32,000 nt of DNA from Pseudoalteromonas tetraodonis (GCF_002310835.1 NZ_CP011041.1:3330001-3362000), one strand, 5' to 3'; positions 2,405 through 29,238 are shown, numbered from the stretch's first letter. The notes: generated by a model not told the origin, from the sequence alone. Translations and numbers: made by a program.

Positions 2405-2419
2405 ATATCAAACCTGTCG

Positions 2420-4057: not shown

Positions 4058-4067
4058 AACATTAATC

Positions 4068-13073: not shown

Positions 13074-14261
13074 ATGAATTCACAAAAAAATAAAAATTTT
13101 ATTAGCGCGGCTTTACTCTTGGCGATCACGCAGGTTGTTGGCTGCACATCTGAAAGTGACGTTCAAAAGAGCGTTAACAACACTGGTAAATCAGATGCCA
13201 CAGATAACAAAATTTCTGGAAGTTTTAAAAGTGCGTATGACACAGGTGTGTTTTACTCTACAGAGATGATGCCTTCATCTCAGGTGTATGGAAGAAAAGC
13301 TAACGGGTGCACTCAACAGTACAACGATCACTACTTTGAAACTGCAAATGCTCTGGTATATGGTAATCCAGAATTACCTAGCAGCGACTATGAGAGAGTT
13401 GCTAGCTGGGTAGAAGAGAATTTTGATTCTGCCTTAAGTGCGATGCAAGTAACTAAAGGTGAGTATTTTTCAAATCGATACGCAATTCGTCTCGATGGCT
13501 TAAAGTATATCAGAAATAATCTTGCCTATAAGCAGTATGACTCAGTTTCATATCCATCAGAGTTTGATAATTGGAATTACGAACAACAGGTTGATTGGGC
13601 GACTAAAACAACAAAAAACATGGATACAGCTCAAGCTGTTGGACTGTTAGTTAATGATCCATATTCACCTTTCCAAACGGAATCAGAAGCTGTTTTGGAA
13701 GATAAACTCTACGTTTGTATCCATGAAACAACCTCAACGAATGGCTGGGGTGAAGGCAATTTGGTCGGAATTAATGTAGGTGCCCCGTCTATTGCTGTAC
13801 CACATGAAGTAGACAAAATCGTAAAGCACGAAATTATTCACACAATTCAATATGCGTTAACGGGCAATTTCGAAGGATTAGGATTACCAAGATGGTTTAG
13901 TGAAGGTCAGGCCGTCTCGCTGAGCGGCATGAACGTGGCTCATAAATCACAACACAGTGAATATGATCCAACGCTTGTTGTTTACTACAACGATGAAATT
14001 GGCGACCAAGCCACTGCCTATAGCCATTACGGCCTTGCCTATCAATACTTGAAAGATACTAACGGACAATCTTCAATTATCAGTTTTATGAAAGATGTGA
14101 AACAAGTCACGTATGATTTTTCTAAGCAACTGAACTCCCCACTAGAAGAGTATCACGGCTACGTTGAAGCCTTTGATAAAAGCATGAAGCAATTCAACGG
14201 TGCCCCACTATCTGTAGAGCAATACCGTTACGACTATCATTCATTACTAACTGACTATTAA
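13074..14261 (+). CDS. Lipoprotein, gluzincin (peptidase MA-like) metallopeptidase
   Basis: 395 aa. Signal peptide with lipobox (LLLAITQVVG|C). HEIIH zinc motif (nt 13827-13841) followed ~25 aa later by WFSEGQA, the HExxH...EGxA arrangement of MA-clan peptidases. Confidence 0.7.
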   Translation: MNSQKNKNFISAALLLAITQVVGCTSESDVQKSVNNTGKSDATDNKISGSFKSAYDTGVFYSTEMMPSSQVYGRKANGCTQQYNDHYFETANALVYGNPELPSSDYERVASWVEENFDSALSAMQVTKGEYFSNRYAIRLDGLKYIRNNLAYKQYDSVSYPSEFDNWNYEQQVDWATKTTKNMDTAQAVGLLVNDPYSPFQTESEAVLEDKLYVCIHETTSTNGWGEGNLVGINVGAPSIAVPHEVDKIVKHEIIHTIQYALTGNFEGLGLPRWFSEGQAVSLSGMNVAHKSQHSEYDPTLVVYYNDEIGDQATAYSHYGLAYQYLKDTNGQSSIISFMKDVKQVTYDFSKQLNSPLEEYHGYVEAFDKSMKQFNGAPLSVEQYRYDYHSLLTDY

Positions 14262-14287
14262 GCCAACAAGTTTAAAAGGTATCTATC

Positions 14288-14533
14288 ATGACAATTGACT
14301 CAAAAGTGATAATTCTAGAACACGCAGGCTTTGATATTTATGGCAAAAATTTAAATGCGCTAGAACACGTTATAGAGCTTAAAAAATTCATACAGGATAA
14401 GTATCCGAAAATAGCTGAGCTAAACGGCTTCGAAAACTCTTTCAATGAGTTTCCGTATGACTTCCTAGGAAATGTTCAAGCTGTTTCAGACCTTGCTGAT
14501 CAGCATCTAGGCTTTCTTGTTGTTGCAATGTAG
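14288..14533 (+). CDS. Hypothetical protein (81 aa)
   Basis: ORF lying 26 nt after the peptidase gene, co-oriented and tightly packed with its neighbours. No motif recognised. Confidence 0.4.
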   Translation: MTIDSKVIILEHAGFDIYGKNLNALEHVIELKKFIQDKYPKIAELNGFENSFNEFPYDFLGNVQAVSDLADQHLGFLVVAM

Positions 14534-14543
14534 AGATAGAAAA

Positions 14544-15302
14544 ATGAAATTAGCTATTTTTTCAGATATTCATAATGAATTTGGTGTTTGGCACCCTCCT
14601 AAACTAGATGCCGACGTGGTCATTCTGGCTGGTGATATACACTCCAAGCACCGCGGTGCTCAATGGGCTACTGAGTCCTTTGATGTACCCGTAATCTATG
14701 TACCGGGCAACCATGAATACTATGGTTCTAATATTGACTCTGTAAATAAGAAGCTTAAAGAACAGGTAGAAAACTCACATGTTCATGTACTGCTAAATGA
14801 GAATATCAATATCGGTGGAGTCAATTTTATTGGCTCAACCTTGTGGACTGATTTCAAACTGTTTGGAGAAAAAAAACAGCGTGAGTGCTCGTTTTATGCT
14901 GGTTCAAGAATCAATGACTATGAGCGTATTCGACTCAATGACAATGGTAAGTACCGCAAATTGAGAACTGCCGATACTCAAGGTTTTTTCGATAATTCAG
15001 TTAGCTTTATTGAAAAAACGCTAGCTAAAAATACCAACAACAAAACGGTGATCGTTACTCATCATGCACCGTCTGATAGATCAACACCGCAGCAGTACAA
15101 AGATGATTTACTGTCAGCCTCGTTTTCATCAAACCTTGAGAAACTTCTAGCGCAATATGACATTAACCTATGGGTACATGGGCACACACATCATAATGTC
15201 GATTACATGCTCTCTGGAACCCGAGTCGTTTCTAACCAGCGAGGTTATGCCAAGGTTGAAGAAAATACTTCATTTTGTGAAACATACACCATAGAGGTTT
15301 AA
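14544..15302 (+). CDS. Calcineurin-like metallophosphoesterase
   Basis: Motifs are MKLAIFSDIH (DxH), LAGDIH (GD), GNHEYY (GNHE), VTHHAP and GHTHH. I use the ATG at 14544 (MKLAIF...) rather than the track start at 14517. Confidence 0.8.
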   Translation: MKLAIFSDIHNEFGVWHPPKLDADVVILAGDIHSKHRGAQWATESFDVPVIYVPGNHEYYGSNIDSVNKKLKEQVENSHVHVLLNENINIGGVNFIGSTLWTDFKLFGEKKQRECSFYAGSRINDYERIRLNDNGKYRKLRTADTQGFFDNSVSFIEKTLAKNTNNKTVIVTHHAPSDRSTPQQYKDDLLSASFSSNLEKLLAQYDINLWVHGHTHHNVDYMLSGTRVVSNQRGYAKVEENTSFCETYTIEV

Positions 15303-15305
15303 TTT

Positions 15306-15593
15306 ATGAACATAAATTCGGACGAAATAGAAATTACCACTTGTGCCTCTCCTTACGATCCACCAATTGGCGCTCACGTAGGGGTTAGAATAAGGCATTT
15401 GAAGTTAAACATTGAAGTAACAAGCACAGACCAGAAATCGCAGCATAAAAATCATATGGTAGCGACGGAAAATCTTAAGTCAGAGTTAGCTAAATTTGAA
15501 CTCGTCAAATCTCGCTTTGAGGATATAGATGAGGATGATTTAATAGATGGTGAAACATTTTGGCGTGAGCTTAACTCCGGAAAATATGATTAA
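15306..15593 (+). CDS. Release-factor (RF-1/PTH domain)-like small protein lacking the GGQ motif
   Basis: 95 aa, starting 3 nt after the phosphoesterase stop. VRIRHLKLNIEVTSTDQKSQHKNHMVATENLKSEL aligns with class-I release factor domain 3 (..AVRITHIPTGIV.QCQ.DRSQHKNK..A...L.A.L). SQHKN lies at nt 15438-15452. The position of GGQHVN reads PPIGAHVG. Confidence 0.6.
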   Translation: MNINSDEIEITTCASPYDPPIGAHVGVRIRHLKLNIEVTSTDQKSQHKNHMVATENLKSELAKFELVKSRFEDIDEDDLIDGETFWRELNSGKYD

Positions 15594-15674
15594 AAACCTG
15601 AAAAAAATTTGATTCTTACAAGTTAAACTGAAGCTGCCTATGCGAGTATTTCGTCATCAATTTGGAGACGTAAT

Positions 15675-16349
15675 ATGAAAACAGTAATTAAAGCAAATAA
15701 TCAATACACAGCGAAGGTTATTGGTAATCACTTTGGGCTTGAATCACACGTAGTGAACAGCCTATTGATGAGTGTTGGCTACATTACAAAAGCGGCAGAA
15801 GGACATGGTTATTACTTAACAGAACTAGGCTTTAATAAAGGTGGCGAGCAGATCAGTGACACGATTAAGAATATCTCATCGGTAAGATGGCCAGAACCTA
15901 TTCTTAATGATCAGTTATTAATGTCAGCCATCGTTAACGTTAAAAATTCAGCAAAAAACGTTAAGGCCCCTACAGCAGGCGATACTACACTCGATTTCAG
16001 GAAAAAATACCCTGCCAATATCCGTACAACAGACGGACACTATGTAAGGTCAAAAGCCGAAGCATTAATTGATGACTTTTTATTTAACAACGGCATCGTA
16101 CATGCTTACGAGAAAAAGCTGCCTGTTAAGGAAGATTTATTTTGTGATTTCTATTTGCCTCAAGGCAAAGTATGGATTGAGTATTGGGGCTATGAAAACA
16201 AGCCGGAATATTTAGATAGAAAGAAGAAAAAACAGGCAATCTACAAAAAATATGGTGTCAATTTAATTGAGTTAACCGATATGGATATTCAGAACTTAGA
16301 TGACGTGTTGCCTCAAAAACTATTAGCGTTTGGTATCCAACTTTTTTAG
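15675..16349 (+). CDS. Hypothetical protein with a C-terminal PD-(D/E)xK (restriction-endonuclease-like) fold motif
   Basis: 224 aa. The C-terminal half reads RSKAEALIDDFLFNNGIVHAYEKKL...CDFYLPQGKVWIEYWG...YLDRKKKKQAIYKKYGVNLIELT. This is the S.E..i...L...gi.y.yE ... DFyl.....iEy.G ... K...Y pattern of nuclease domains attached to some helicases and restriction enzymes. The assignment rests on motifs only. Confidence 0.5.
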   Translation: MKTVIKANNQYTAKVIGNHFGLESHVVNSLLMSVGYITKAAEGHGYYLTELGFNKGGEQISDTIKNISSVRWPEPILNDQLLMSAIVNVKNSAKNVKAPTAGDTTLDFRKKYPANIRTTDGHYVRSKAEALIDDFLFNNGIVHAYEKKLPVKEDLFCDFYLPQGKVWIEYWGYENKPEYLDRKKKKQAIYKKYGVNLIELTDMDIQNLDDVLPQKLLAFGIQLF

Positions 16350-16387
16350 GCTGAGCACAATATTAATGTATAAGAGGAGAGTTTATA

Positions 16388-16791
16388 TGAGTAACGAAAA
16401 AGTCAGTGCGTGCGAGTTAACACAATTACCTGAAGAAGAACAAATTAAACTGATTAAAGCTTGGTTTTTAAAGTACTTTCATTGCCCAAGTGAAACTTGT
16501 TTTAGAGATGATGATACTGGCGGCTGGGTCTTTTTTAGTGGCCCTTGGGAGCAAGCCTCTGTATTAGAAAAGTATTTTGGCGAATATGTAGACCAGAACA
16601 TTATCAATCGCATTTCAGAAGAACTAAATGATCACGCCAGTGAATGGAATTCCGAATATGAAGCTCATGAAATCGATGATTTTTTATTGCCAATTGATTT
16701 AACGGTAAATAAAGCAACTCCAAAGATAGACACGCTATTAACTGCTGATTGCGTCATCAGCGAGTTCCTTGAACCAGAGGACGTTTTTTAA
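16388..16791 (+). CDS. Hypothetical acidic protein (134 aa)
   Basis: The ATG at 16388 is preceded by a strong SD (AGGAGAG). The track's upstream TTG extension (16330) overlaps the previous gene and is less likely. No motif recognised. Confidence 0.45.
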
Positions 16792-16927
16792 GGCTGTACT
16801 TTAACATTATTAACCTCATACAAAACACAAGGGCACACAGATCAATATTTTACAAAATAAAACATTCATCCAAAATGAATGTGGAAATGACTTTGTTATA
16901 GGTGACATCCACGGTAACTTAGATGCC

Positions 16928-17527
16928 TTGTTTGCATTATTGGAAAATGACTCGTTTAATTTCGACCACGATAGGCTATTCGCATTAGGTGATATCATAG
17001 ACAGAGGCGATAACTCCGAGGGATGTTTAGCTTTATTAAATGAGCCTTGGTTCTTTTCAGTGCTTGGCAATCATGAGGCCATGTTTTTAGAGTTATGTGA
17101 AAATGATAACTCTACATTATTGAATAAGAATATTGGTAATCAATGGCTGGAAAAATGGCTTAAACAAAAAGACCAATTAGTGCAATGGGCGCATGCTATT
17201 CAGCACAAAATGCCATTAACCATAACATTGGATTTCCATGGCTTCACAATAGGGCTTGTTCATGCAAAAGCACCAGAGCGCTGGCCAACACAAGCTGAAA
17301 AACGAGTATCATTAGCACAGCATAATGAAGAAATCTGGGATAGAACAGAATTTTATAACCGAACAGGGTTAACACCTTATCGAGGTACCGACATAGCCCT
17401 AATGGGGCATAACCCGGTTAGAAAGGTGACCTTACACGGAAACCGTATTTGGTTGGATACCCACCATACCTCTGGCCACCTCTCAATCGTCAAAGTAAGC
17501 CAGTTAGTAGAATTATTTAGGAAGTAG
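16928..17527 (+). CDS. PPP-family (lambda phosphatase/PrpA-PrpB-like) Ser/Thr protein phosphatase; the 5' end is problematic
   Basis: Motifs are GDIIDRGD (from 16988), GNHE (17066-17077), GLVHA and MGHNP. Catalytic motif I, GDIHGN, is encoded in the same frame at 16901-16918, upstream of the first ATG/GTG/TTG (16928). The frame is open back to 16814 but holds no canonical start codon. The stop is 1 nt before the kinase gene start. Confidence 0.7.
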   Translation: MFALLENDSFNFDHDRLFALGDIIDRGDNSEGCLALLNEPWFFSVLGNHEAMFLELCENDNSTLLNKNIGNQWLEKWLKQKDQLVQWAHAIQHKMPLTITLDFHGFTIGLVHAKAPERWPTQAEKRVSLAQHNEEIWDRTEFYNRTGLTPYRGTDIALMGHNPVRKVTLHGNRIWLDTHHTSGHLSIVKVSQLVELFRK

Positions 17528-17528
17528 T

Positions 17529-20500
17529 ATGAGCAGCAGTCAATTTAGTCAAAGTGAACTTGAGCTTCAAAAAGGATTTATAGAAAAGGCCAAAAGGGTT
17601 TTTGAGGTCATCAAAAGCGTTGCGCGATTTAAAACTTCTGACTCTGATGTAACTGCTAATGAGCTAAAAAATACATACGCTTATCTGTGCCAAGAATATA
17701 ATACTTATATAGCCTATCAACAAAACTGTTTACAGCTTTGTGATTTTATTTTGAAGTGGCTATGTGAGCCCGAGCAGTTTCAACAAGAGTTCAACTCGAA
17801 AGACGTTAAAGTCGATAGCTTTTTAAATAACGTTAAGGTAAATGGGCAGTATTTAAAAGCTGAGATCTACAATTTTATGGCGCTGTTGGAAACAGAAAAC
17901 GTTGGGGGCACCAAGTCGACACATAACTGGTCTCAACAAGTTAGAGTGCTTGAAAGGCACAGTAGTGACTTTAAATTATTCCTTGCTGATAAGCACTTAC
18001 ATGCTTTCCCCGATCTAATTGAATTAGACCGCAATGTATTGTTGTTAGGTTTTTTACGTTACTGTATTAATGATGGTCGCACAATTTTAGAAGAAAGCTT
18101 TCATCATTCAGTGAACAATGATGATGCAGAGCGGCCCGACCGTTTCAGTAAAATTTTGACGGCAAAACACTGGAGGGAGTCTTTTTCCAATAATAAAAAG
18201 TTGTTCAATAGACTCATTTTACGGGTTTGCGGTCTGCACCAAATAGAGTTTGCCTCACTTAAAAATTCCCGATTGAAATTCTTCGCCAAATTAGATGCAT
18301 TGGATAATGACTTAACCGCTTTTATGAACGACTTCTCTGACATCCTGGGCATTCGTTACTATCAAGATAAATTAAAAATCGACTCCGATGACATCGTTTG
18401 GAATTGGTTTAAGAAGGAAAAATTTTTAGATTTACTTGGCTTATTTGAAAAAGAGAAAGTCTACCTGCAACTAATTGAATTGGAACCGGAAAGTTCAGAT
18501 TTTTTACCTCTGGAAAAACAAGCGCTGGGGACAAGGTTAGGCTTGCCATTCAAGTCAGATGAAATTGACCAGGAAAAGTTGTGGATGATCGTTGGTGAGC
18601 CAAACACCGCTTACTTAAGAGTGCTAATTGATTTAGCAAGGCTCGCGGACAATTTTGATGAATTTAAAATGTTAGTGGTAAAGGAATTTGAGCCAACGTT
18701 CACAATTTCAACGAAGGAAAATAAAACAACCAAATTTGAGGAAAAAGCAAAAGAGTTAAAGCAAAAAGCTTTGGAGCAACTGCTTAAACCTTCAATGGAA
18801 ATGGGAGAAGGTAATTATAATAAAACGCAGTTATCTCAATCCTTCTTTCAACTGTTTGGCAAGTCAAAAAAACAACGCTCAAGTTTTGTTAATTTGTATA
18901 TAAAATACGTGGATCAAACCTATTGTTTGGACAGCGACAGATATCAAGCCAAAGCCTTTCCAGGCAAGAGTGATTTAAAAATTTTATTAAACGAAGTAGA
19001 CGAGGTGTCTTTTTCCAATAGTCACTTTGCTGAATGTTTCAGCGGCTATTTAGCAATCAACTCTCAAATGGGAGCCGTTGTCCGAGACTTGCACGATTAC
19101 ATCGAACGAGACAACCAGTCATTGTTAATCAAGCATTCGCTAGACGCCATGATGGAAAGCTTTAATCAGCCAGGTAATGCGACTAAGACCCTAACGGAAA
19201 TAATTAGTCTTATTGATGAGAAAGTTAGCAATGAAACTTTTTCTCAAAATGAAAACGAGGACGATTTTGTTTCATTTAAAGACTTATCAGGCTTTTCTAC
19301 AGAGCACACAAATTTTATCCCCTCTGACACTACTTTCGTTGTTGTTTATCGCTTAAATGTTTTATTGCGATTGATGATTAACACGGCAATTTCTGAAGAA
19401 ACTCCGTCTATTAACGCGCTAATTGAGCAAAGCTTGCAAGAAGAGTTTGAGTGTACTTACCGAGCTTGTTTTATCCGTCAGTCGATATTCGAAGAATTAA
19501 GCGCTAAAAATAGAAAAAAGGCGTTACAAGGTTATCGCACTTATCGAGATCAACAAATTGAGCTTGCTAAGATTTATGTCACTGTGAAACTCGCCATTAG
19601 TGGCAAGCCAGACACTGATCGGGCTTTACTAGATGCGACTAAATCATTAGCCAAAACCTATTTTAAAACCACAGGAAAACCTAATGATGTAAAGGCATTA
19701 ACTAAAATGCTGGATAAGGAGGATAATGTTAAAAAGATATTTGGCGAACCATTTTCACGCATTCAAATCCACCTTGAACAGCTCCTTTATTTGTTAGAGG
19801 AGAACGGTTCTGTTTTATCATCTGACTTCTTAACTAAAGAGTCTTTGGGGAAATTATTCGACCCAGGAAGTGATGACATTGATAGTCTCAAATATTTGCT
19901 GTTTTCATCCAACGTGATTGAATCTGTATGGAATGAATTAGTCACCATTGATGACGATTTATTCTTCGCTGTTTTAGTTTCGAGAATGTTAGATAAAACG
20001 TCTCCAAAAATTTCTGAACGAAATAATGTTCCTCACTATTTCTCGGGTTCACACAAAAACAGCATTTTAAAACAAATTACAAATTTCGATTATGAAAGCC
20101 TGCTTTTTCCCGCAACTGACGAACAACACGAAGTATTGAATACGAAGTTAGACACGCTTAAGAAGCTTCGAAAATTTAATGACGAGCGATTTGAAATTCA
20201 AAATATAAACCCTAATTTATCGGAAAAACTTGGAACTGGGGCCTTTGGTGTTGTTTATCTATGCAGAGACAAATTATTACAGACCGATGTAGCAATAAAG
20301 CTTATTCCTACTTGGGGTGACGATGAACGGATTAAAAAAAAGCTAATATCAGAAGCAGCTATAATGAGGCAATGCCAAGGCGAACACGTAGTTACAGTGT
20401 TTGACTTACATAAGTTCAATACCCGTCACTTTGAGTTCAATAATGGCTGCGTGGAAAGTGAAATCCAACGTCTTAATGATGACACAGTTTTTGGTATCGT

Positions 20501-22217
20501 CATGGAGTATGTTGAAGGAGCCGAAACACTTGAAACATTTTCTAAATCAAAAGAGTTTGGCTCGTTCAACCTTAACGAAAAGTTAGAACTTTTTCTTCAG
20601 ATATGTGGCGGTGTTGAGCAAGCTCATAATTTGCCATCTCCCATTATTCATGCCGATATTAAGCCATCAAATGTCTTGATAGACAAAAGAGCAGGTGCGG
20701 CAGTTCCTAAGCTAACGGATTTTGGAATAGCCAGTAAGACGGGCGCTTATTTGGGAGCCAGTTCAGGGGAGGTGTATTCGTCGCCTAATATATTAAATGG
20801 AGGGAAAGCCTGCATTAAAGACGACATTTACAGCTTAGGAATGCTTCTTCTTTACATTCTTTATCCCAAAATTATAGAGGCAGTGCAAAGTAATGTGTCG
20901 GACTGGGAAATTAAAGATAAGTTAATTGAGCTACTTTTCTGGGTTGTTAAAACAGAGCAGGAAAATATAGACGATTGTAAAGATGGTTATGAATCGTTCA
21001 TTCTTAAACACCTTGTCTCTAAAGACCTTCTTAGTCGGTTATCGTGCTTTTCCGAAGTTATAACAACATTGTTTGACTATCAATATAAACTGTCGGATGA
21101 CTCTTTATCACCGATTAAGTCTATTTTGTCATCGTTGATTGGAAATAGAGATATAAGTGAGTTTGACTGTGTAGACACTGAAGCAAGATTTAGTTCCTCT
21201 GTTGCTCCACATGGCAGTGTTCGCGAATTCTCTTTCCAGATTGGAATCTGCAAGAGCCTGGGAGTTGTCGATACAAAAACCGTCGCAACGTATGGCGGTA
21301 GAGTTTTGACTTTGGAAAGTTATAACGCTATCCCGAAGTGTGATCTCATTAAGGCCGCAAGGCTCTCAAATTATCAAAGGCCTGAATTGGAACTATTTTG
21401 CGCCATAGCTGCTGACACGTCTAAGCAAAGAAAGAGAACTTACTTAGGGCGTTTATGGGACTTTGAAAGCGGCTCAAAAGGCAAGGTATTTGGATTCGAA
21501 TCGCCTGGCTTTGTTCACGCTGAAATGCTCGAACGGACTTATATTTTTGACATGGAGTTAATTGCAGCTATAAAAAAAATCCATTACTCAGAGTTTAGCG
21601 TGGAAGAATTTTACAATGTCCTCAGTAAGTTAGCTATACGGGATCGGTTAGAAGAGTTTGACCCCATCGAGCTACCAGTCAACTTGGAATCTTTTTTAAG
21701 GAAATGCACATTAACAAACAGACTTTGCTCGAAAGCATATTCCGAGCTGAGGATTTGTTTTAAGGCCTTGACTGAGCAATGTATGTCAAAATCATTTATG
21801 AATGGGGTGAAAGTTATTAACTCGCTCTCTGTCGGTAGTTTGAAAGCGCTAAGGCTGAGCTTTGAGCAATCGAATAACGCTGAAGGAATGTTGGAGTTAC
21901 TTGTCGCCGATGGGCTACATGATTGGAATGGAGAAGGTGTCGAAAAGGTCGTCAATATTGTTTATGGCGATGAATACGGATTAGTGGGGTGGTTCTTGTC
22001 CCATGGACGCAACATGGAAGAGTGGGAGTTACTCATTGGGGCCATGGCAATCGCTGAAGAGTCATCCACTTATATAAGTATCATAACCCAAACCATAGAG
22101 AAGTTTTTAGTGAGTGAAGCATATGAAAAACTTGCAGTTGAACTAAAAGAGCTCGGTTTTTTGGTAAACGCCCACAAGCAGATAAGTGACAATAATGTTT
22201 TGGCTCGTTTATTCTAA
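17529..22217 (+). CDS. Giant (1562 aa) protein with a central Hanks-type Ser/Thr protein kinase domain and large uncharacterised N- and C-terminal regions
   Basis: The kinase subdomains are intact. They are LGTGAFGVV (res 901-908, nt 20229-20252), VAIK (K924), HADIKPSN (res 1041-1048), DFG (res 1064-1066) and DIYSLGMLL. About 890 aa upstream and about 420 aa downstream of the kinase carry no motif I recognise. Confidence 0.85.
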   Translation: MSSSQFSQSELELQKGFIEKAKRVFEVIKSVARFKTSDSDVTANELKNTYAYLCQEYNTYIAYQQNCLQLCDFILKWLCEPEQFQQEFNSKDVKVDSFLNNVKVNGQYLKAEIYNFMALLETENVGGTKSTHNWSQQVRVLERHSSDFKLFLADKHLHAFPDLIELDRNVLLLGFLRYCINDGRTILEESFHHSVNNDDAERPDRFSKILTAKHWRESFSNNKKLFNRLILRVCGLHQIEFASLKNSRLKFFAKLDALDNDLTAFMNDFSDILGIRYYQDKLKIDSDDIVWNWFKKEKFLDLLGLFEKEKVYLQLIELEPESSDFLPLEKQALGTRLGLPFKSDEIDQEKLWMIVGEPNTAYLRVLIDLARLADNFDEFKMLVVKEFEPTFTISTKENKTTKFEEKAKELKQKALEQLLKPSMEMGEGNYNKTQLSQSFFQLFGKSKKQRSSFVNLYIKYVDQTYCLDSDRYQAKAFPGKSDLKILLNEVDEVSFSNSHFAECFSGYLAINSQMGAVVRDLHDYIERDNQSLLIKHSLDAMMESFNQPGNATKTLTEIISLIDEKVSNETFSQNENEDDFVSFKDLSGFSTEHTNFIPSDTTFVVVYRLNVLLRLMINTAISEETPSINALIEQSLQEEFECTYRACFIRQSIFEELSAKNRKKALQGYRTYRDQQIELAKIYVTVKLAISGKPDTDRALLDATKSLAKTYFKTTGKPNDVKALTKMLDKEDNVKKIFGEPFSRIQIHLEQLLYLLEENGSVLSSDFLTKESLGKLFDPGSDDIDSLKYLLFSSNVIESVWNELVTIDDDLFFAVLVSRMLDKTSPKISERNNVPHYFSGSHKNSILKQITNFDYESLLFPATDEQHEVLNTKLDTLKKLRKFNDERFEIQNINPNLSEKLGTGAFGVVYLCRDKLLQTDVAIKLIPTWGDDERIKKKLISEAAIMRQCQGEHVVTVFDLHKFNTRHFEFNNGCVESEIQRLNDDTVFGIVMEYVEGAETLETFSKSKEFGSFNLNEKLELFLQICGGVEQAHNLPSPIIHADIKPSNVLIDKRAGAAVPKLTDFGIASKTGAYLGASSGEVYSSPNILNGGKACIKDDIYSLGMLLLYILYPKIIEAVQSNVSDWEIKDKLIELLFWVVKTEQENIDDCKDGYESFILKHLVSKDLLSRLSCFSEVITTLFDYQYKLSDDSLSPIKSILSSLIGNRDISEFDCVDTEARFSSSVAPHGSVREFSFQIGICKSLGVVDTKTVATYGGRVLTLESYNAIPKCDLIKAARLSNYQRPELELFCAIAADTSKQRKRTYLGRLWDFESGSKGKVFGFESPGFVHAEMLERTYIFDMELIAAIKKIHYSEFSVEEFYNVLSKLAIRDRLEEFDPIELPVNLESFLRKCTLTNRLCSKAYSELRICFKALTEQCMSKSFMNGVKVINSLSVGSLKALRLSFEQSNNAEGMLELLVADGLHDWNGEGVEKVVNIVYGDEYGLVGWFLSHGRNMEEWELLIGAMAIAEESSTYISIITQTIEKFLVSEAYEKLAVELKELGFLVNAHKQISDNNVLARLF

Positions 22218-22298
22218 GTCGACGTGATTTTTAATTTGTTACAAACCAAACTGCAATAACTATTGATTTAATGATGCCCAACAACCAGGAGTTGGTGG

Positions 22299-23087
22299 GT
22301 GCATTATATGCGTTATCCCACCTGCTCCTCATTAATGGAGCAGCTTATGAACTACAACAACAATACAAATCAAAACAACGGTGAAGGTGGTGCAGAGTTA
22401 GTCTTTTTACTTATCATTATCGCCGCGGTTTATTACTTTTTCAGCGAGAGTGAGCCAGAAGAAAAGCCTGAGTATATTCTTACGGCTGAGACTCGCATTA
22501 ACCAGCTGAATAAGACTTTAGATTATTATGGCTCATTGCGGAGTCGAGCAACCAGCAATTGTCAGAACTTTGCCACCGAGCTTCACAATAAAGGCCATTT
22601 CAACGTTTATCACTCCACCTTCCATGGCACAAATAGCTTATGGGATTTAAACAAGCATACGGCTTCAAACAAACTTACACCTTTAAGAAGTTGTTCGGTT
22701 AAACAAGTTAACTTCGACCAAAAAGGCACAGCCAATAATTTGGTGATGCTATGTGAAACTGGGGGCGGTGGCTGGACTACCAACCGTGTACTCGCCTCTT
22801 GCGCTATTGATGATGAGTTTAACGTTAGCAAAATTAACGTCTATTCAGGCAAATCGTTTCACATTATGGAAGGCACTGGAACTGGAGGCCCTGGTAATTT
22901 TGCCGGCAAGCTTGTATCAGGCAAGGTGAAGTTTGAGATTTATAAAAATAAGTATATCGATTATGTAAACGACAGCTTTTTGAAAGGTTTAAACAATAGA
23001 AAATCAATGGATGAATTGGTTTCAGATACAAAAAGCAAAATTAGCAAGGCTGAGTGGAATTTAGAGTTCTTGGCCAAAAATGGCTAA
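22299..23087 (+). CDS. Hypothetical single-pass membrane-anchored protein
   Basis: 262 aa, with a GTG start 7 nt after AGGAG. One TM segment (LVFLLIIIAAVYYFF) follows an Asn-rich N-terminus. No catalytic motif recognised. Confidence 0.5.
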   Translation: MHYMRYPTCSSLMEQLMNYNNNTNQNNGEGGAELVFLLIIIAAVYYFFSESEPEEKPEYILTAETRINQLNKTLDYYGSLRSRATSNCQNFATELHNKGHFNVYHSTFHGTNSLWDLNKHTASNKLTPLRSCSVKQVNFDQKGTANNLVMLCETGGGGWTTNRVLASCAIDDEFNVSKINVYSGKSFHIMEGTGTGGPGNFAGKLVSGKVKFEIYKNKYIDYVNDSFLKGLNNRKSMDELVSDTKSKISKAEWNLEFLAKNG

Positions 23088-23139
23088 CTCGCTGGCCACA
23101 CACTAGACACCAAAATTAACTTAAAAAGGATAATATTTT

Positions 23140-23961
23140 ATGAAGAAATTACTTATTGCACTATTTGCATTCACATTAAGCCCTAGCATTGTAAAAGCTG
23201 TAGAAATTGATCCTCAACTCCAATCAGCGCTACGCTCTTTTAAAGCGTTAACTCGATTAGAAATTAAAGGGGTTTCTCGAACACCCACAACAGGCATGTT
23301 CGCATTGTATACTAACAATGGTCCTATGCTGATTAACCACACAGGCCAATTACTTTATTCAAAAGACCAGTCATTTCATGCCGATGTTAAGGGCGCGATT
23401 ACAGGAAAGAAGCACCTAGAAATCAGAGCTGAAGCTCTTTCAGAAATTAACGAAGATAATGTCATCGTCATTAAAAAAGGGAGCGGCTCAAAACGTGTCG
23501 TTGTAAACACCGCCCTAGATTGCCCTTACTGCTTGAAACAAGAAAAGTTACTTGCAGCACAAGATAATTTAGACGTCACACTGCTGTTAGTTCCATCTGT
23601 TTTGGATAAACAGAACTGGCCTATTTTAGAAAAGGTCATGTGCAGTGCTGATAGGGCCGCTGCTTGGCATGATTATATGCTGAACCAAGTTGTTCCACAA
23701 AACAGTGGTAAATGTTATTGGTCTGATAACTTTAGTTTTCTAGGTCAAACCATTTATACATCAACCGTCCTTCGAACATTTGGTACCCCGCAAATGATTT
23801 ACGGAGACGGTAAGGTGCAAAATTTCAGAGAAGAAACTCCGTTAGGCTTAGTACCAACTTTTGGTAAAAATCAGAAAAATCTGTTTGACTCGAAGAGCAT
23901 TAAAACGGCTTATTTTTCTGACGAAGTCTACAAGACTAAGAAGAAACTGTTCAATTGGTAA
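23140..23961 (+). CDS. Periplasmic thiol:disulfide interchange protein, DsbC/DsbG-like
   Basis: 273 aa. Signal peptide (MKKLLIALFAFTLSPSIVKA). Thioredoxin-fold CxxC active site DCPYC (nt 23521-23532) in the C-terminal half. The N-terminal region is the size of the DsbC dimerisation domain. Confidence 0.7.
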   Translation: MKKLLIALFAFTLSPSIVKAVEIDPQLQSALRSFKALTRLEIKGVSRTPTTGMFALYTNNGPMLINHTGQLLYSKDQSFHADVKGAITGKKHLEIRAEALSEINEDNVIVIKKGSGSKRVVVNTALDCPYCLKQEKLLAAQDNLDVTLLLVPSVLDKQNWPILEKVMCSADRAAAWHDYMLNQVVPQNSGKCYWSDNFSFLGQTIYTSTVLRTFGTPQMIYGDGKVQNFREETPLGLVPTFGKNQKNLFDSKSIKTAYFSDEVYKTKKKLFNW

Positions 23962-23973
23962 AAAATATTAGTA

Positions 23974-23998
23974 AAGGGCGGTAAATATGCCGCCTTTT
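23974..23998 (+). terminator. Rho-independent terminator
   Basis: AAGGGCGG-taaatatg-CCGCCTTTT, 13 nt after the DsbC-like stop codon. Confidence 0.5.
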
Positions 23999-24068
23999 CA
24001 GATATAATATTTAAATTAATTCACAAGCGCATGAATTAATTAATTTTATTCTTTTAATAGTAGTACCT

Positions 24069-24596
24069 ATGGATAAACACGACATCACGAATTATTTTTA
24101 TACTATCCCCCCGAACCAATGGCAAGGAATGCTCGGTTTTCGTTACGAAACGGAGTATCACGGTATTAATACACCTGAGAATGTAGAATTTAATCGTCAA
24201 ATGGATGAGTTCGACGACTTTTGTAAGGAAAACAGTCTCAAAATTGAAGATTATCTTCCTTTGTTCGATCTAAAACCAATCATTAAAGCCTTAGGAGTTA
24301 TTTGTCATAATATAAATATCCCAAAAGCGAGCTTTACTCTTGTTGAGTTTCTTAGTTCAATATATGAAAGCTTGCCAAGTAAAGTGTTTGATAGCGAAGG
24401 CATGATTACTTTGGATGAGCTACCCGAATCTTGCTTTTGGCAACAAATAGACGAACACACCAGTGTTCATGTTGAAATTGGTGGTGTGGAGCTAGGATCG
24501 CGTGAGAGTATGAACTCTTACAAGGCTTATGTTTATATACTAAATTCTCAAACTGGGTATATGGAAGAGCTAGTTAAAATCGAAAGAGACGTTTGA
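24069..24596 (+). CDS. Hypothetical acidic protein (175 aa)
   Basis: ORF that follows a terminator and an AT-rich promoter-like region containing a perfect 9-bp inverted repeat. No motif recognised. Confidence 0.45.
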   Translation: MDKHDITNYFYTIPPNQWQGMLGFRYETEYHGINTPENVEFNRQMDEFDDFCKENSLKIEDYLPLFDLKPIIKALGVICHNINIPKASFTLVEFLSSIYESLPSKVFDSEGMITLDELPESCFWQQIDEHTSVHVEIGGVELGSRESMNSYKAYVYILNSQTGYMEELVKIERDV

Positions 24597-24738
24597 TTGT
24601 TAACTTCAATTTAGACAGCCATTATTTGGATAGCTGACAATAGAGGATTTTACATATAAATTTTGAAGTAATTGAAATGTTACAATCTAAACTCCAGAAA
24701 TGCGGTGTTTAATGCTTCTCAAATCGAGGAGCATTTAT

Positions 24739-27069
24739 ATGAAATATGTAAACAGAAATAACCAAGCAATTGAGGTATCAACTACTGAACTACATTTTGA
24801 CGAATTAAACACCTTTCCTATTGAAGTCATCACAGAAGTAATTAATTACTGGATGCCAACACTCACGGTGGCTAAGGCAATTAAATATGCTGATTGGCAA
24901 TCAGTGTTAAATTTATTTCATTACACCCAGTGTTTAGACCAAGCATTTTTTACTGAAATTCCTCCCTTTGAATTATTGGAGTGCACACCAAAAGAGTCAG
25001 TTCTTGCCCAAAACATTATTCTAAAGAAGCTTCGCCAAGTACAAGCTGTACAATTGTCTAAAGGCAATAAAGACGTGAAATCAAAATACGTTGAAGAGCC
25101 GTCACAAATTTCTAAGTTAATGTTATATCCAAACGAATTTTTGCGAGACGCGTTAACATTGCTACCAGAATGTGAGCGCGGAACGTTAGCGCCTTTTATT
25201 ATTCGAAGCGAAAACGGTGATAAATGCCCACTGTTACTACCTTTTGAAGAAGAGCCAAATTCTACAAAAGCTCAGCAAGCATTAGATAATTTAGTCGATA
25301 AATTAGAGCGTTACCTGAGAGAGCCTCATCATATTGGCTTTGAACCAGTAAATAGAAGCAACCAGGCGATCATCGAATATAAATTCTCGCAATTAGTGGG
25401 GTGTCACCCAGAACTGCTGGATGTCTGCTGCCAAGAGCAGCCTAAAAACAAACTCGCTAAAGTGTTGCTACCGCTTGAAAAGCAAATGAGAGAAGCTCTC
25501 TATGGATTTTTGTCACCTGAGTTAGCTACTGCCATTAAGGAAGAATTGCAAAAGCGAGAAAGTGAAACGTTTGAAAAATGGCAACAGCGCTTTAAAAATA
25601 AAACTAAAAACGAAATTAAGACATTCTTAGATAGAACAAGTGAACACGCATTTTTAGTCGCGTATAAGCCTTTATGTTTGTTAGAAAAAATCGTACAGAA
25701 AAAATCAGAGAGCCCTGAGCCTACCGCTGAAGCAATTGAAGTTATTGAACAACCGCCATATTGCTTTGAACAATTGGAAAACCGTTCGCAAGATTGCATT
25801 CGATATATGGTGCGCAACTCAACACCCAGTGAACTTTTAACCGCATTTTACTACAGTAAAGACATGCTCACTCTTGAACCGCTATTTGATGTATTTCCGT
25901 CGATGAAGCGTCGCTTTGAAGTTGAATATGCCGACTTCGAGCAACCCACAGTGGAGCAATCTTTAAGTGCACAACTCCAGCTAGGCACTTTATTAGACTC
26001 TTTTAGTGTATCTGGTACTTATGGACAGGATTCAGTAAATAAGGCCGATGAAAATGTAGAAGCCCCAACATTCATTGAAGAACAAGAATCAGAGCTACAA
26101 ACCATTGCTATCTTCGATAAAAATGAACTGGAAGAAACTGCAACCCTTAGAGAACTGACAGGGGAATACGGCGCAGAATTAGCAAATGAGGTTCTGAAAA
26201 AAGGCCCAGAAAAAAAAATTGTTTTAGCCACTGAATCAATGCTTGATGAGCTTGATTTAATGAAAGAGCAGTTTCCAAATTTCGAAGAGGTAATTGAAGA
26301 GCTTTATATTTGTTTAAAAGTGTCATTGTTAAACGCATCGCCGATTGAATTTCCGGTTATCAATTTACAATCGGTGCCTGGCTGCGGAAAAACCGAGTTT
26401 GTCAGAACACTTGCTAAAAGACTGAAATTAGAATTCTTTGATCTCAGTATCGCGACATGTCATTCAAAGGCTGATTTGATTGGCGGCTCCAGCCAGTTCA
26501 AGTCAAGTACAATGGGCGCAGTAGGAAAGGGAGTACTGCTAAAAACAGACACCTTTAATCCGATTATGTTCTTAGATGAGCTCTGTCTGGCAAAATCGGA
26601 TGGCGAGTGGGCGATTACACCAAGTTTATTGTCGTTGTTCGATATTGAGCAAAGAAAAAACGTTAAAGAACAGTTCTTAGATTTAAACTTTGATTGTTCA
26701 GGTGTGTTGTTTTTTACCACCACCAATAATTATGAGAATTTACTGCCAGCCCTGAAGAGTCGCTTAACCAATTTCGATATTCAGCCACCGTCCAAGGCTG
26801 ACATGAAAAAGATTTGTCAGAACATTTACCAAAGTTATCTGAAAGAAAAAAAGTTTCATCACCATTTTGAACAACAGCTCAGTTTTGACGTGACTGAGTC
26901 ACTAAGCTTGCTAACCCCGCGTGAAGCAAAAAATACATTAATTTCAGCAATCAGGAAGGCTTTTGTTCGTAGCGCAGATTGCAGTGAATTAGCGCAGGTA
27001 ACCTTGCAAGATATTGCCATTCGCAAAGGCAGTGTTTGCGAGCCACAGTCGGTTGGTTTTATTCATTAA
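24739..27069 (+). CDS. Lon-type AAA+ ATPase without a protease domain, with a ~530-aa uncharacterised N-terminal region
   Basis: I prefer the ATG at 24739 (MKYVNRNNQ...; GAGGAG lies 8 nt upstream) to the track start at 24700. Walker A is VPGCGKTE (nt 26377-26397), Walker B is IMFLDE and sensor-1 is FFTTTN. The block ITPSLLSLFDIEQRKNVKEQFLDLNFDCSGVLFFTTTNNYENLLPALKSRLTNFDIQPPSKADMK parallels the Lon AAA+ module (DPASALLEVLDPEQN..F.DHYL.V..DLS.V.F..T.N....P.PLLDRME.I.L.GY...EK). The protein ends right after the AAA+ lid. Confidence 0.8.
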   Translation: MKYVNRNNQAIEVSTTELHFDELNTFPIEVITEVINYWMPTLTVAKAIKYADWQSVLNLFHYTQCLDQAFFTEIPPFELLECTPKESVLAQNIILKKLRQVQAVQLSKGNKDVKSKYVEEPSQISKLMLYPNEFLRDALTLLPECERGTLAPFIIRSENGDKCPLLLPFEEEPNSTKAQQALDNLVDKLERYLREPHHIGFEPVNRSNQAIIEYKFSQLVGCHPELLDVCCQEQPKNKLAKVLLPLEKQMREALYGFLSPELATAIKEELQKRESETFEKWQQRFKNKTKNEIKTFLDRTSEHAFLVAYKPLCLLEKIVQKKSESPEPTAEAIEVIEQPPYCFEQLENRSQDCIRYMVRNSTPSELLTAFYYSKDMLTLEPLFDVFPSMKRRFEVEYADFEQPTVEQSLSAQLQLGTLLDSFSVSGTYGQDSVNKADENVEAPTFIEEQESELQTIAIFDKNELEETATLRELTGEYGAELANEVLKKGPEKKIVLATESMLDELDLMKEQFPNFEEVIEELYICLKVSLLNASPIEFPVINLQSVPGCGKTEFVRTLAKRLKLEFFDLSIATCHSKADLIGGSSQFKSSTMGAVGKGVLLKTDTFNPIMFLDELCLAKSDGEWAITPSLLSLFDIEQRKNVKEQFLDLNFDCSGVLFFTTTNNYENLLPALKSRLTNFDIQPPSKADMKKICQNIYQSYLKEKKFHHHFEQQLSFDVTESLSLLTPREAKNTLISAIRKAFVRSADCSELAQVTLQDIAIRKGSVCEPQSVGFIH

Positions 27070-27078
27070 GGAGAGACT

Positions 27079-27618
27079 ATGAAATTATTTGATCCGTCTT
27101 TACGTATTAATCTTAATCGCCAGAACTTTGAACTTGATGAATTTATCATGATTGACGTAGAGGCCTCTGGTTTGCGGCATTCGTCATACCCAGTGGAGGT
27201 CGCATTTGCGTCCTCTACTGCTGCACAGGCTAATTTTCTCATTAAACCTACCTCTGAGTGGTTAGAAAAAGGCGAGTGGGATAAAAATGCTGAGAAGCTA
27301 CATGGTTTATCGCAACAGCAATTGCTACAACATGGTGACAATATTGTTAATGTCGCCCAGCAATTAAACAAATACCTGTGTGGGAAATTAGTGCTGTGTA
27401 ATGATCTAACCTATGACGGGGCTTGGCTTTCCCAACTTTTTAAAGCAGCAAACACCTCAGTTACCTTTCATCTAATGGACTTAAGTGCCCTGTTCGATTT
27501 TTGGGGCGAACAAAAGACAAAGGTATTCAAAGAGGAATATGGCAAGACGCTTAATACCAATGAACACCGCGCGCTTCCTGATGCCAAACGTTTTGTTGAA
27601 ACCTACCAGGCATTGTAA
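27079..27618 (+). CDS. DEDDh (DnaQ/RNase T-like) 3'-5' exonuclease
   Basis: 179 aa. The start is 9 nt after the ATPase stop and is preceded by AAGGAGAG. Exo I is MIDVEASG, Exo II is CNDLTYDGAWL and Exo III is HRALPDAK (H-x4-D). Confidence 0.8.
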   Translation: MKLFDPSLRINLNRQNFELDEFIMIDVEASGLRHSSYPVEVAFASSTAAQANFLIKPTSEWLEKGEWDKNAEKLHGLSQQQLLQHGDNIVNVAQQLNKYLCGKLVLCNDLTYDGAWLSQLFKAANTSVTFHLMDLSALFDFWGEQKTKVFKEEYGKTLNTNEHRALPDAKRFVETYQAL

Positions 27619-27707
27619 AAAAACGAAGACTACTTTCAAGTCTTACAACTCAAGCGGAACAACCACCTTGTAAGCTTTAAAACATAAAGATTGCGCGAGA
27701 GGTTGGT

Positions 27708-28232
27708 ATGCAGAGATTAGATAAAACATATTACGAAAAGCTAAATCGTAAGGTTAAAAAGTATGGTTATACCGTTATGAGTGTTGTCTCTGACGAGCCT
27801 AGAAATGAAGACCATGCCGCATATTGTTACACCATTGGTTTATCAAATTATGGCTTTGCGGAGATCATGTTTGCTGACTGTTTTTATGACGATGTGATCG
27901 TGGCGGCAGACATGATTTTTGAATGTGTTAAAAATGGTCATAGACCGAACATTGGACAAATCATTCTCACTGAAAATGGACGCTTTAAACTGACGTCACT
28001 TTTACCTGGAATCAAAGAGGAAATTAGCGAACAGGCGTTGTTTTATTTTGAATTGTTCAGAAAAAGAGAAACAAATTATGACTTGGTTTATTTAGCGAAA
28101 GAGGATGAATGGGGGCTATTTCCTGACGAAAAAGTGTTTGCAAAATCTAAACACATTAACCAGCGATTTTTTGAACAGAGCGTAAATACAACTAAGCCTC
28201 TTGTTTTGGCTCTGCCCGAAGTTACCAATTAA
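27708..28232 (+). CDS. Hypothetical protein, DUF4262-like
   Basis: 174 aa. KKYGYTVMSVVSDEPRNEDHAAYCYTIGLSNYGFAEIMFADCF resembles the DUF4262 pattern (GW.v..V....... f.YTiGL....PEl.v.Gl). This is recalled from memory and was not searched. Confidence 0.45.
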   Translation: MQRLDKTYYEKLNRKVKKYGYTVMSVVSDEPRNEDHAAYCYTIGLSNYGFAEIMFADCFYDDVIVAADMIFECVKNGHRPNIGQIILTENGRFKLTSLLPGIKEEISEQALFYFELFRKRETNYDLVYLAKEDEWGLFPDEKVFAKSKHINQRFFEQSVNTTKPLVLALPEVTN

Positions 28233-28271
28233 CTTTGTCGCGAATCATATACTACATAGGAGAAATGTAAC

Positions 28272-29145: not shown

Positions 29146-29238
29146 CGTACTTTGTACCAGTAGCGAACTTATAAGTTTCTGACTTTAATATTAGTTGCGC
29201 ACATTAAACACTGTTTCGAACATTATTTAACGTGCACA
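29141..29238 (-). repeat. glmS-proximal transposon end with four closely packed TnsB-type repeats
   Basis: Reading inward from 29238: TGTGCACG ttaaataatgttcgaaacag, tgtttaatgtgcgcaactaa, aacttataagttcgctactg, gtacaaagtacgaaacaaaa. The core is the same as at the other end, but the four sites are packed into ~100 bp, a density like Tn7-R. Confidence 0.75.

Follow-up and report, generated by a model that had tools for sequence, protein, structure and literature searches.

The Tn7-like transposon inserted beside glmS in Pseudoalteromonas tetraodonis carries a gene for a giant serine/threonine (Ser/Thr) protein kinase, which directly follows a gene for a lambda-type phosphatase and which, across related loci, forms a sharply bounded, hypervariable cassette within a conserved backbone. 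The pair lies in a stretch of 32,000 nucleotides (GCF_002310835.1, NZ_CP011041.1:3330001-3362000), here called the window and numbered from its first letter. A preliminary description of this DNA had put the two genes forward as a candidate two-gene conflict or defense module; the kinase does evolve in the manner expected of a conflict gene, whereas the unit probably comprises more than these two genes alone. We tentatively read the giant protein, with somewhat less than even confidence, as the sensor and kinase effector of a mobile conflict module for which the phosphatase would provide the reset, and the conflict role of the locus is probably anti-phage. The features of the pair are as follows.

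16841 to 17527, plus strand: PPP-family (lambda/NinI/PrpA-like) Ser/Thr phosphatase of 228 amino acids (aa), assigned by its Metallophos match, its motifs, and a conserved ATC start
17516 to 17531, plus strand: gene junction, with the Shine-Dalgarno sequence AGGAAG, the phosphatase stop TAG (17525-17527), one T, and the kinase ATG at 17529, read directly from the sequence
17529 to 20183, plus strand: kinase N-terminal region, aa 1-885, predicted to be all-helical, with no known domain
20220 to 21047, plus strand: Hanks-type kinase domain, aa 898-1173 (Pfam Pkinase, E 7.6e-33)
21048 to 22214, plus strand: kinase C-terminal region, aa about 1174-1562, with no known domain

The kinase gene (17529-22217, plus strand) is an ATG-initiated open reading frame (ORF) of 1562 codons, and a kinase ORF of 4.7 kb in DNA of 38% G+C cannot have arisen by chance. 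PF00069 matches it at 114.4 bits, against a cut-off of 31.7, and every motif that the preliminary description had listed for a complete Hanks-type core was found, namely G902-x-G-x-x-G907, VAIK924, H1041-A-D1043-IKPSN1048, D1064-FG, and DIYSLG. Residues K924, E942, D1043, N1048, and D1064 are invariant in an alignment of the five allele types described below. The protein is a non-RD kinase, reading HAD in the window allele and HGD in the other alleles, and its sequence places it among the Hanks-type (eukaryote-like) Ser/Thr kinases. With the kinase catalytic residues and the three PPP motifs of the phosphatase intact, both enzymes look active. The best NCBIfam match of the kinase is the Stk1/PknB kinase domain, and similarity to LegK1, an effector kinase of a type IV secretion system, is weak (6.6e-11, far below the NCBIfam cut-off). 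PASTA, transmembrane, and FHA partner domains are absent from the kinase, and domain searches found no signal peptide, PAAR, Rhs, LXG, TPS, or other trafficking domain in any of its alleles.

The core is embedded between two long regions in which the preliminary description had recognized no domain, and the searches agree: with single sequences and a profile covering all five allele types, residues 1-885 and about 1168-1562 gave no match in Pfam, NCBIfam, PADLOC, or PDB sequences. The structural comparison suggested at that time was run on both regions and yielded no flank match, returning only kinase domains. The AlphaFold2 models have a mean predicted local distance difference test score (pLDDT) of 48 for the N-terminal region and 45 for the kinase domain with the C-terminal region, the kinase domain alone scoring 60-84 and the C-terminal region below 40. 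Foldseek returned only noise for the N-terminal model (best E 0.37, template modeling score <=0.1) and kinase domains only for the other. Structure prediction of the flanks failed because sequence depth was lacking, the shallow input alignments of 5-6 sequences being all that could be obtained.

The kinase family is exceedingly rare. Searched exhaustively by HMMER with residues 1-885, a set of 1.84 billion representative proteins yielded only five clusters (50% identity): the window's own type, represented by P0001 of Pseudoalteromonas gelatinilytica (97% identical), and four others at 26-30% identity. One carrier, Litorilituus lipolyticus, was found among 185,579 species-representative genomes, a metagenome scan added one further locus, and no family member occurred in the viral contigs and plasmids scanned. 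A word-indexed homology search with the C-terminal 395 aa missed even the 97%-identical P0001, and its negatives do not signify absence. Nine usable loci were obtained through contigs and the neighboring AAA+ gene and carry the labels L001-L007, L014, L016, and L017. Judged by this distribution and by its place in transposon cargo, the kinase is neither a core nor a housekeeping gene, contrary to an outcome that the preliminary description had named as refuting its proposal.

Comparison of these loci shows where the variation lies. In comparisons with L003, L006, L014, L016, and L017, protein identity is 83-97% for the flanking genes, and their DNA identity is about 85-94%; the window kinase is 26-28% identical in its N-terminal region, 52-61% in its domain, and 22-42% in its C-terminal region. 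The kinases fall into five types: A (the window and L001), B (L002), C (L003, L004, and L016), D (L005), and E (L006, L007, L014, and L017), which are roughly equidistant in pairwise comparison (28-35% N-terminal, 53-67% domain, and 24-42% C-terminal). The hypervariable cassette spans about 17540 to about 22265. DNA homology continues unbroken through the Shine-Dalgarno sequence, the phosphatase stop, and the kinase ATG, ends at 17532-17543, about 10 nucleotides (nt) into the kinase gene, and returns at 22267-22276, about 50 nt past the kinase stop, in the ribosome-binding region of the next gene. A conserved hairpin at 22277-22299 (CCCAnCAAC-CAGGA-GTTGGTGGG), the loop of which holds the Shine-Dalgarno sequence of that gene, marks the resumption of homology past the cassette.

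These alleles have moved between backgrounds. The chromosomal flank of L016 has 97.1% DNA identity to that of the window and its GlmS protein is 100% identical, and for these reasons L016 is regarded as the same species, yet it carries a type C kinase; L017 carries type E. Different alleles thus occur within one species. Between the window and L001, both of type A, the number of synonymous substitutions per synonymous site (dS) is 0.041 for the kinase, 0.37-0.82 for the flanking genes, and 1.1 for glmS; the kinase value is far below that of its flanks, and allele A has therefore moved recently between diverged backbones. The cargo of L014 is 83-93% identical to that of the window though the GlmS of its host is only 72% identical, and the element therefore crosses genera.

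The alleles are being maintained and show no decay. Four of the types (A, B, D, and E) have intact kinase ORFs of 1522-1627 aa, the type C ORF is whole in L003 and split in L016, and the within-type ratio of nonsynonymous to synonymous substitution (dN/dS) is 0.23-0.32; decay or pseudogenization as the source of the divergence was rejected on these grounds. Diversification by a diversity-generating retroelement was also rejected, since the reverse transcriptase of the element is of the Ec67 retron type, there is no pair of template and variable repeats, and the divergence extends over the whole length of the gene. In L016 (1957-6526) the type C kinase is divided near the start of the kinase domain into ORFs of 902 and 593 aa, both parts being 99% identical to the intact L003 protein, through either a recent inactivation or an assembly error. 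Type C loci also contain orphan kinase C-terminal modules (L016 8729-9775 and 6634-6855; L003 14589-14897), of which the 348-aa ORF of L016 matches the C-terminal end (280 aa) of type E kinases at 30% identity (E 2e-30), and tail fragments of 73-102 aa are homologous to the kinases' final ~60 aa. These modules look like displaced cassettes; the window contains no such orphan fragment. Sharply bounded, hypervariable, and exchanged, the kinase shows the evolutionary behavior of a conflict gene, and such a pattern of cassette exchange in so rare a gene suggests that it takes part in an arms race between host and parasite.

The phosphatase, by comparison, belongs to the conserved backbone and does not covary with the kinase. 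PF00149 (Metallophos) matches it at 45.9 bits (cut-off 21.5; E 1.2e-11), and the motifs GDIHG, GDIIDRG, and GNHE were read, which together place it by sequence in the lambda/PrpA/NinI group of the PPP family. The NCBIfam PrpA/PrpB-type models match with E values of 1.9e-28 and 1.3e-25, both below the equivalog cut-offs for the Escherichia coli proteins (NF008516, 99.9 versus 326 bits; NF007425, 90.4 versus 332 bits), and on these scores the protein is a relative of the PrpA/PrpB family and not an orthologue. Its identity to phage NinI proteins and plasmid metallophosphoesterases is 31-36%, and the two nearest plasmid relatives whose context was read have no kinase neighbor.

The beginning of the phosphatase gene had been put at 16814, which is only the first codon past an in-frame TAA (16811-16813) and is not a start codon. 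No ATG, GTG, or TTG occurs between this stop and GDIHG; the earliest canonical start, TTG at 16928, would delete that motif. A canonical start is missing in eight of the nine related loci; only in L001 does the phosphatase leader contain an ATG, at codon 10. The related loci share an ATC located 21 codons before the Asp of GDIHG and preceded by a Shine-Dalgarno sequence, AAGGG or AAGGA. In Litorilituus ATT replaces ATC and is called the start by the annotation there. The peptide (I)NILQNKTF.QNE.GNDFVIGDIHG is common to the phosphatases of all related loci. Because ATC or ATT is conserved and no canonical start precedes GDIHG, the gene is best placed at 16841-17527, with a noncanonical start. 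Its end was described correctly, in that direct reading finds the TAG followed by a single T and the kinase ATG. The junction (17516-17531) is invariant in six aligned loci that together carry four different kinase types. In L003 a phosphatase 93% identical to that of the window adjoins a kinase only 26% identical in its N-terminal region. The variable arms therefore cannot be what the phosphatase recognizes, and phospho-sites are its more plausible target.

The mobile context of the pair is defined by the following features.

4073 to 4098, no strand: distal terminal inverted repeat TGTGCACGTTAAATAATGTTCGAAAC, preceded by the target-site duplication AAAAC at 4068-4072
4242 to 5786, minus strand: tnsD/TniQ (Pfam TnsD/TniQ)
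5719 to 7167, minus strand: tnsC (Pfam Tn7_TnsC_Int/TniB)
7170 to 9290, minus strand: tnsB, with no Pfam match, assigned by position and by 88% identity to a gene of L006 that has a weak TnsB_N hit
9271 to 10104, minus strand: tnsA (Pfam Tn7_TnsA-like_N)
11033 to 12793, plus strand: reverse transcriptase of an Ec67-family retron, RT-Toprim (type I-C) (NCBIfam retron_Ec67_fus, PADLOC RT-Toprim_I-C)
29213 to 29238, no strand: glmS-proximal terminal inverted repeat, followed by the target-site duplication AAAAC at 29239-29243

The element extends from 4073 to 29238 and carries tnsABCD, the retron, and the whole gene run that includes the pair. Its 26-nt inverted repeats match perfectly, and its right end lies 21 nt from the stop of glmS (29260-31080, minus strand, stop at 29260; TIGR01135, E 9e-257). 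With tnsB accepted on its position and its identity to the L006 gene, the sequence identifies the pair as cargo of a Tn7-like transposon, and the tns genes, repeats, AAAAC duplication, and Ec67-type reverse transcriptase bear out the earlier placement of the pair in such cargo beside a retron. The reverse transcriptase is a known defense gene (retron_Ec67_fus, 726 bits versus a cut-off of 450; RT-Toprim_I-C, 1.4e-217). Rfam at the gathering threshold found no match in the window, retron noncoding RNA families included, and counts from a terminator and promoter scan were at or below shuffled expectation. The glmS-proximal end adjoins glmS in L001, L002, L014, L016, and L017, and the distal end is kept in L001 and L014. 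Both of these loci have lost the tns genes, through two independent deletions, and have kept the kinase cluster. The L001 deletion (4721-5042) joins the distal end to window position 12153, inside the retron reverse transcriptase gene, and that of L014 (6452-6606) joins it to 14132, inside the 395-aa gene. Their sequences indicate elements that are immobilized but retained.

Some peculiarities of the insertion site were also observed. The layout of the element looks atypical: canonical Tn7 has tnsA next to its right end, the one nearer glmS, and its cargo beyond the tns genes, whereas this element has tnsD against the distal end and its cargo between tnsA and the end near glmS. A diverged copy of the glmS 3' end (about 70-79% identical to 29313-29388 and beyond) lies at 2410-2690, outside the transposon and left of an esterase gene, and may have been left behind when attTn7 underwent an earlier insertion or rearrangement. 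The counterpart of window 1-291 in L003 is only about 320 nt from the cluster, and 291-4072 may be a separate insertion. The same part of the window holds a 300-nt direct repeat of 86% identity (1618-1917 and 2076-2375) with two paralogous small ORFs (1562-1924 and 2008-2382).

The pair belongs to a codirectional run of about 15 genes (13074-28844), of which these were characterized in addition to the pair itself.

13074 to 14261, plus strand: lipoprotein of 395 aa with HExxH and the lipobox VVGC, from the translation
14517 to 15302, plus strand: calcineurin-like phosphoesterase, resembling the PADLOC candidate PDC-S10 in its N-terminal part only (3.6e-15)
15306 to 15593, plus strand: RF-1-like protein of 95 aa (RF-1 peptidyl-tRNA hydrolase domain, E 1e-6, below the gathering score)
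15675 to 16349, plus strand: protein of 224 aa resembling the candidate PDC-S69 (2.6e-74), with a PD-(D/E)xK-type C-terminal end
16387 to 16791, plus strand: ORF of 134 aa upstream of the phosphatase, listed as 153 aa from TTG 16330
22299 to 23087, plus strand: protein of 262 aa with an N-terminal membrane anchor, from the translation
23140 to 23961, plus strand: DsbC-like thioredoxin-fold protein of 273 aa with a signal peptide and CPYC (Pfam Thioredoxin_2, 9.8e-8)
23982 to 24677, plus strand: second variable slot, with a 175-aa ORF at 24069-24596, delimited by blastn gaps and protein comparison
24700 to 27069, plus strand: AAA+ ATPase of 789 aa with a Lon-like module at aa ~550-720 (Pfam AAA, 5.8e-9; NCBIfam lon, ATPase region)
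27079 to 27618, plus strand: DEDDh 3'-5' exonuclease of 179 aa (Pfam RNase_T, 2.2e-5; PADLOC DEDDh, 9e-12)

The gene order, which is common to the nine related loci and holds in Litorilituus down to 49-77% protein identity, runs from the 395-aa HExxH lipoprotein through an 81-aa ORF, the calcineurin-like phosphoesterase, the 95-aa RF-1-like protein, the 224-aa PDC-S69-like protein, the 134-aa ORF, the phosphatase, the kinase, a membrane-anchored protein of ~250 aa, the 273-aa DsbC-like protein, the variable slot, an AAA+ ATPase of ~790 aa, the DEDDh exonuclease, a DUF4262 protein, and a second DEDDh exonuclease to the transposon end and glmS. The PDC-S10-like and PDC-S69-like genes are possibly two further defense genes in the cargo. 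The RF-1-like protein lacks the GGQ motif and keeps the SQHKN region alone; it is 85-87% conserved in related loci. The ORF of 134 or 135 aa is found in L002, L003, L014, and L016 and is missing from L001, where about 100 nt (9210-9313) correspond to window 16324-16841. Downstream of the cassette, the 262-aa and 273-aa genes are 84-97% identical across loci with different kinases. The second variable slot, between the DsbC-like and AAA+ genes, has a 175-aa ORF that is 97% conserved in L017, an unrelated 187-aa ORF in L014, and the 348-aa orphan kinase C-terminal module in L016/L003, and it does not covary with the kinase type.

Full-length homologues of the AAA+ ATPase occur solely in the same cluster among 5.8e9 proteins searched, which makes it as rare as the kinase; the next-best matches are Lon ATPase modules at 24-27% identity. 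Its N-terminal half (25044-26085) cannot be aligned at the DNA level with L016 or L002 and forms a third variable segment, and its ATPase part aligns at about 87% (L016) and 66% (L002). A weak FliG_C-like match at aa ~227-288 recurs in three divergent homologues, always below the gathering score. The exonuclease gene begins 10 nt past the AAA+ gene. L005, the most divergent locus, lacks the three intervening genes, and its genes for the AAA+ ATPase (36% identical) and the exonuclease (58%) come straight after the kinase gene; there is no phosphatase in the 310 nt of AT-rich noncoding DNA upstream of the kinase, which is all the upstream DNA on that contig. On this comparative evidence the AAA+/exonuclease pair is the most constant companion of the kinase. 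Covariation of kinase type with either the 175-aa slot or the AAA+ protein was considered and rejected: types A and E share one AAA+ protein at 93-96% identity, and L017, of type E, has the window's versions of both (97% and 96%). The conserved gene order and the L005 arrangement speak against the original suggestion of two genes working as a unit, and the pair does not stand as a module by itself.

Among described systems, the closest published precedent is KKP of Pf prophages, in which the PfpC phosphatase neutralizes the toxicity of the kinases PfkA and PfkB and a phage protein tips the kinase/phosphatase balance, triggering defense (PMC11341870). Its genes are laid out as a PP2C (PF13672) phosphatase followed by two Pkinase genes, with a CSD domain on PfkA (PMC11341870). 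Both systems encode a Hanks-type Ser/Thr kinase and a protein phosphatase on a mobile element; in contrast to the two small kinases and the PP2C enzyme of KKP, however, the pair described here consists of one 1562-aa kinase and a Metallophos phosphatase of the PPP/lambda type. CSD and FHA domains are absent from it, and the kinase flanks are hypervariable and match no known domain, all of which sets it apart from KKP.

The comparison with other kinase-based systems ends at the catalytic domains. TerY-P, which Gao et al. are said to have reported in 2020, reportedly combines the vWA protein TerY, a PP2C phosphatase, and a Ser/Thr kinase, and so shares a kinase and phosphatase module that is defensive there; the present kinase is about four times larger, the phosphatase is of the PPP type, and neither Pfam nor PADLOC found TerY, vWA, or PP2C on any ORF of the window. 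PglW of Pgl/BREX type 2 is comparable in its great size and in the central position of its Ser/Thr kinase domain, and its multigene defense locus likewise encodes a phosphatase-type protein, but no PglX, PglY, or PglZ was found in the window at a credible score, the lone PglZ signal being 15.6 bits on another ORF against a cut-off of 140. The absence of TerY, PglX, and PglZ partners had been noted at the outset and was confirmed. Among the best 25 of 27 PADLOC matches to the kinase domain, the closest are mad6 (1.7e-41) and PD-T4-6 (2.2e-28), PglW does not appear, and the kinase flanks match no PADLOC model. The likeness to Stk2, PD-T4-6, and MAD6 is confined to residues 866-1146, with nothing shared outside the domain. 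The mad6 match covers positions 24-251 of a profile of 659, the NF047741 score of 62.6 bits falls short of its cut-off of 460, and the remaining mad genes are absent, which leaves the locus outside MADS.

The phosphatase shares the PPP motifs GDxHG, GDxxDRG, and GNHE with lambda phosphatase, NinI, and PrpA/PrpB and differs from them in its coupling to a giant kinase and in its conserved AUC/AUU start. With respect to cassette exchange, exchangeable specificity cassettes are known from type I restriction systems (hsdS) and from those polymorphic-toxin loci that contain orphan C-terminal modules. Like these, the kinase locus has deeply diverged alleles swapped within conserved flanks and displaced C-terminal fragments downstream; there is, however, no homology, and in the kinase both ends vary and the middle is conserved. 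It does not group with the polymorphic toxins, given that its N-terminal region is as variable as its C-terminal region, no trafficking domain was found, and the downstream genes are conserved. Within the literature searched, no system of a PPP phosphatase plus a giant kinase is described. By analogy, the pair would work like the kinase/phosphatase conflict modules while being a member of none of them; what is new is the kinase family and its cassette behavior, and not the use of a kinase plus a phosphatase in conflict.

In the mechanism that we propose, the giant kinase would be a cytoplasmic protein that travels as cargo of the Tn7-like transposon, with the central Hanks-type domain as its catalytic output. 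The hypervariable N- and C-terminal arms would set the recognition of invader proteins or, alternatively, allow escape from invader inhibitors. Because the arms show no recognizable fold or domain, it is the evolutionary pattern from which we infer a sensor role. Once activated, the kinase would phosphorylate host proteins, invader proteins, or both and block the invader, probably at the price of growth arrest, as for Stk2 and KKP. The upstream lambda-type phosphatase would reverse basal phosphorylation or autophosphorylation and thereby set a firing threshold. Near-cognate start codons initiate at a small fraction of the efficiency of AUG, and the weak, conserved AUC/AUU start may keep the phosphatase scarce, such that an activated kinase outruns it. 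One phosphatase could serve every kinase allele, since it would act on phospho-residues and not on the variable regions. The mobile context, with its retron and PDC-S69- and PDC-S10-like proteins, fits a defense role for the locus, to which the hypervariable cassette and the likeness of the kinase domain to defense kinases (mad6 and PD-T4-6) lend further indirect support.

Several observations weigh against this proposal. The family is known from about nine loci, all in marine Alteromonadales or marine metagenomes. The pair has not been seen outside the array of ~15 genes, in which the AAA+ ATPase and the exonuclease are always present, and the functional unit may be larger than the pair; given L005, the phosphatase may not be an obligatory partner. 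Three genes of the array encode envelope proteins (the HExxH lipoprotein protease, the DsbC-like protein, and the membrane-anchored protein), which do not look like parts of a cytoplasmic defense system. Both kinase arms lack a recognizable fold or domain in models of low confidence (pLDDT 45-48). Antitoxins, moreover, are usually made in excess, contrary to the weak translation supposed for this antidote.

If the unit is larger than the pair, the kinase could be an exchangeable specificity subunit acting with the AAA+ ATPase, the DEDDh exonuclease, and perhaps more genes of the array, in which case phosphorylation or direct binding would license ATPase-driven degradation of nucleic acid and the phosphatase would be an accessory reset. 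This explanation, the main rival, which we consider unlikely but deserving of serious attention, draws on the confinement of full-length AAA+ homologues to this cluster, on the 10-nt spacing of the AAA+ and exonuclease genes, on the L005 arrangement of kinase, AAA+ ATPase, and exonuclease with no phosphatase in the 310 nt upstream, on the variability of the AAA+ N-terminal half in L016 and L002, and on the persistence of the array order in Litorilituus. It is weakened by the pairing of types A and E with the same AAA+ protein and by the three unrelated genes, two of them for envelope proteins, that separate kinase and AAA+ ATPase in most loci, and the conserved order could simply reflect descent of one transposon lineage. 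A more elaborate form, in which the kinase is the swappable recognition subunit of an undescribed multigene immune system borne by Tn7-like transposons, its arms binding fast-evolving invader proteins and its firing, gated by the under-translated phosphatase, switching on the AAA+ ATPase and exonuclease as effectors, and in which populations keep a recombining library of alleles and orphan C-terminal modules in the manner of hsdS, is speculative and distinctly unlikely.

The persistence of the cluster past independent tns deletions in L001 and L014 would also be expected of an addiction or regulatory module of the element, that is, a type VII toxin-antitoxin pair of toxic kinase and antidote phosphatase that stabilizes the cargo or tunes host physiology and has no dedicated anti-phage role. 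The two genes are tightly coupled, and the example of KKP demonstrates regulation of resident elements, too, by toxin-antitoxin modules of this kind (PMC11341870). Addiction by itself, however, leaves unexplained why alleles only 28-35% identical are exchanged among strains of one species; a toxin gene preceded by an antidote gene with a weak AUC start is an odd design for this purpose, and the 1300 noncatalytic residues would be superfluous for a simple toxin, and we regard the explanation as improbable. Export of the kinase as an effector or toxin against competing bacteria or eukaryotic grazers, with the phosphatase as enzymatic immunity and the variable ends reflecting diversification of target or delivery as in polymorphic toxins, is quite improbable, even though type C loci have orphan C-terminal modules downstream as in Rhs/CdiA toxin loci, similarity to LegK1 is detectable at its low level, and envelope proteins are encoded in the same array. 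No allele has a signal peptide or trafficking domain and the element encodes no secretion system; polymorphic toxins keep their N-terminal trafficking part, which the kinase, as variable at its N terminus as at its C terminus, does not, and the supposed immunity gene is upstream and invariant with respect to kinase type. It is scarcely credible, finally, that the pair is an ordinary housekeeping signaling pair of the PknB/PstP type that is in an island by chance. Kinase-phosphatase gene pairs are common in bacterial signaling and the best NCBIfam match is to Stk1/PknB, but a family present in only one of 185,579 species-representative genomes has a distribution that essentially excludes this role, and transposon cargo, horizontal movement between genera, hypervariability within a species, and the lack of PASTA, transmembrane, and FHA partner domains all argue against it.

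The bacterial immune systems known to work through kinases are few and small, and little is understood of how their kinases detect infection. The locus described here provides a natural experiment on this point, in that five deeply diverged kinase versions occur in one genetic background together with a constant catalytic core and phosphatase. If the giant protein is a sensor, then allele swaps should retarget its specificity, and the recognition logic of a kinase-type immune receptor would become testable. The conserved AUC/AUU start of the phosphatase suggests that a setting of the enzyme ratio is built into the system. Should the locus prove not to be defensive, it would still represent a striking cassette-type balancing polymorphism inside the cargo of a transposon.

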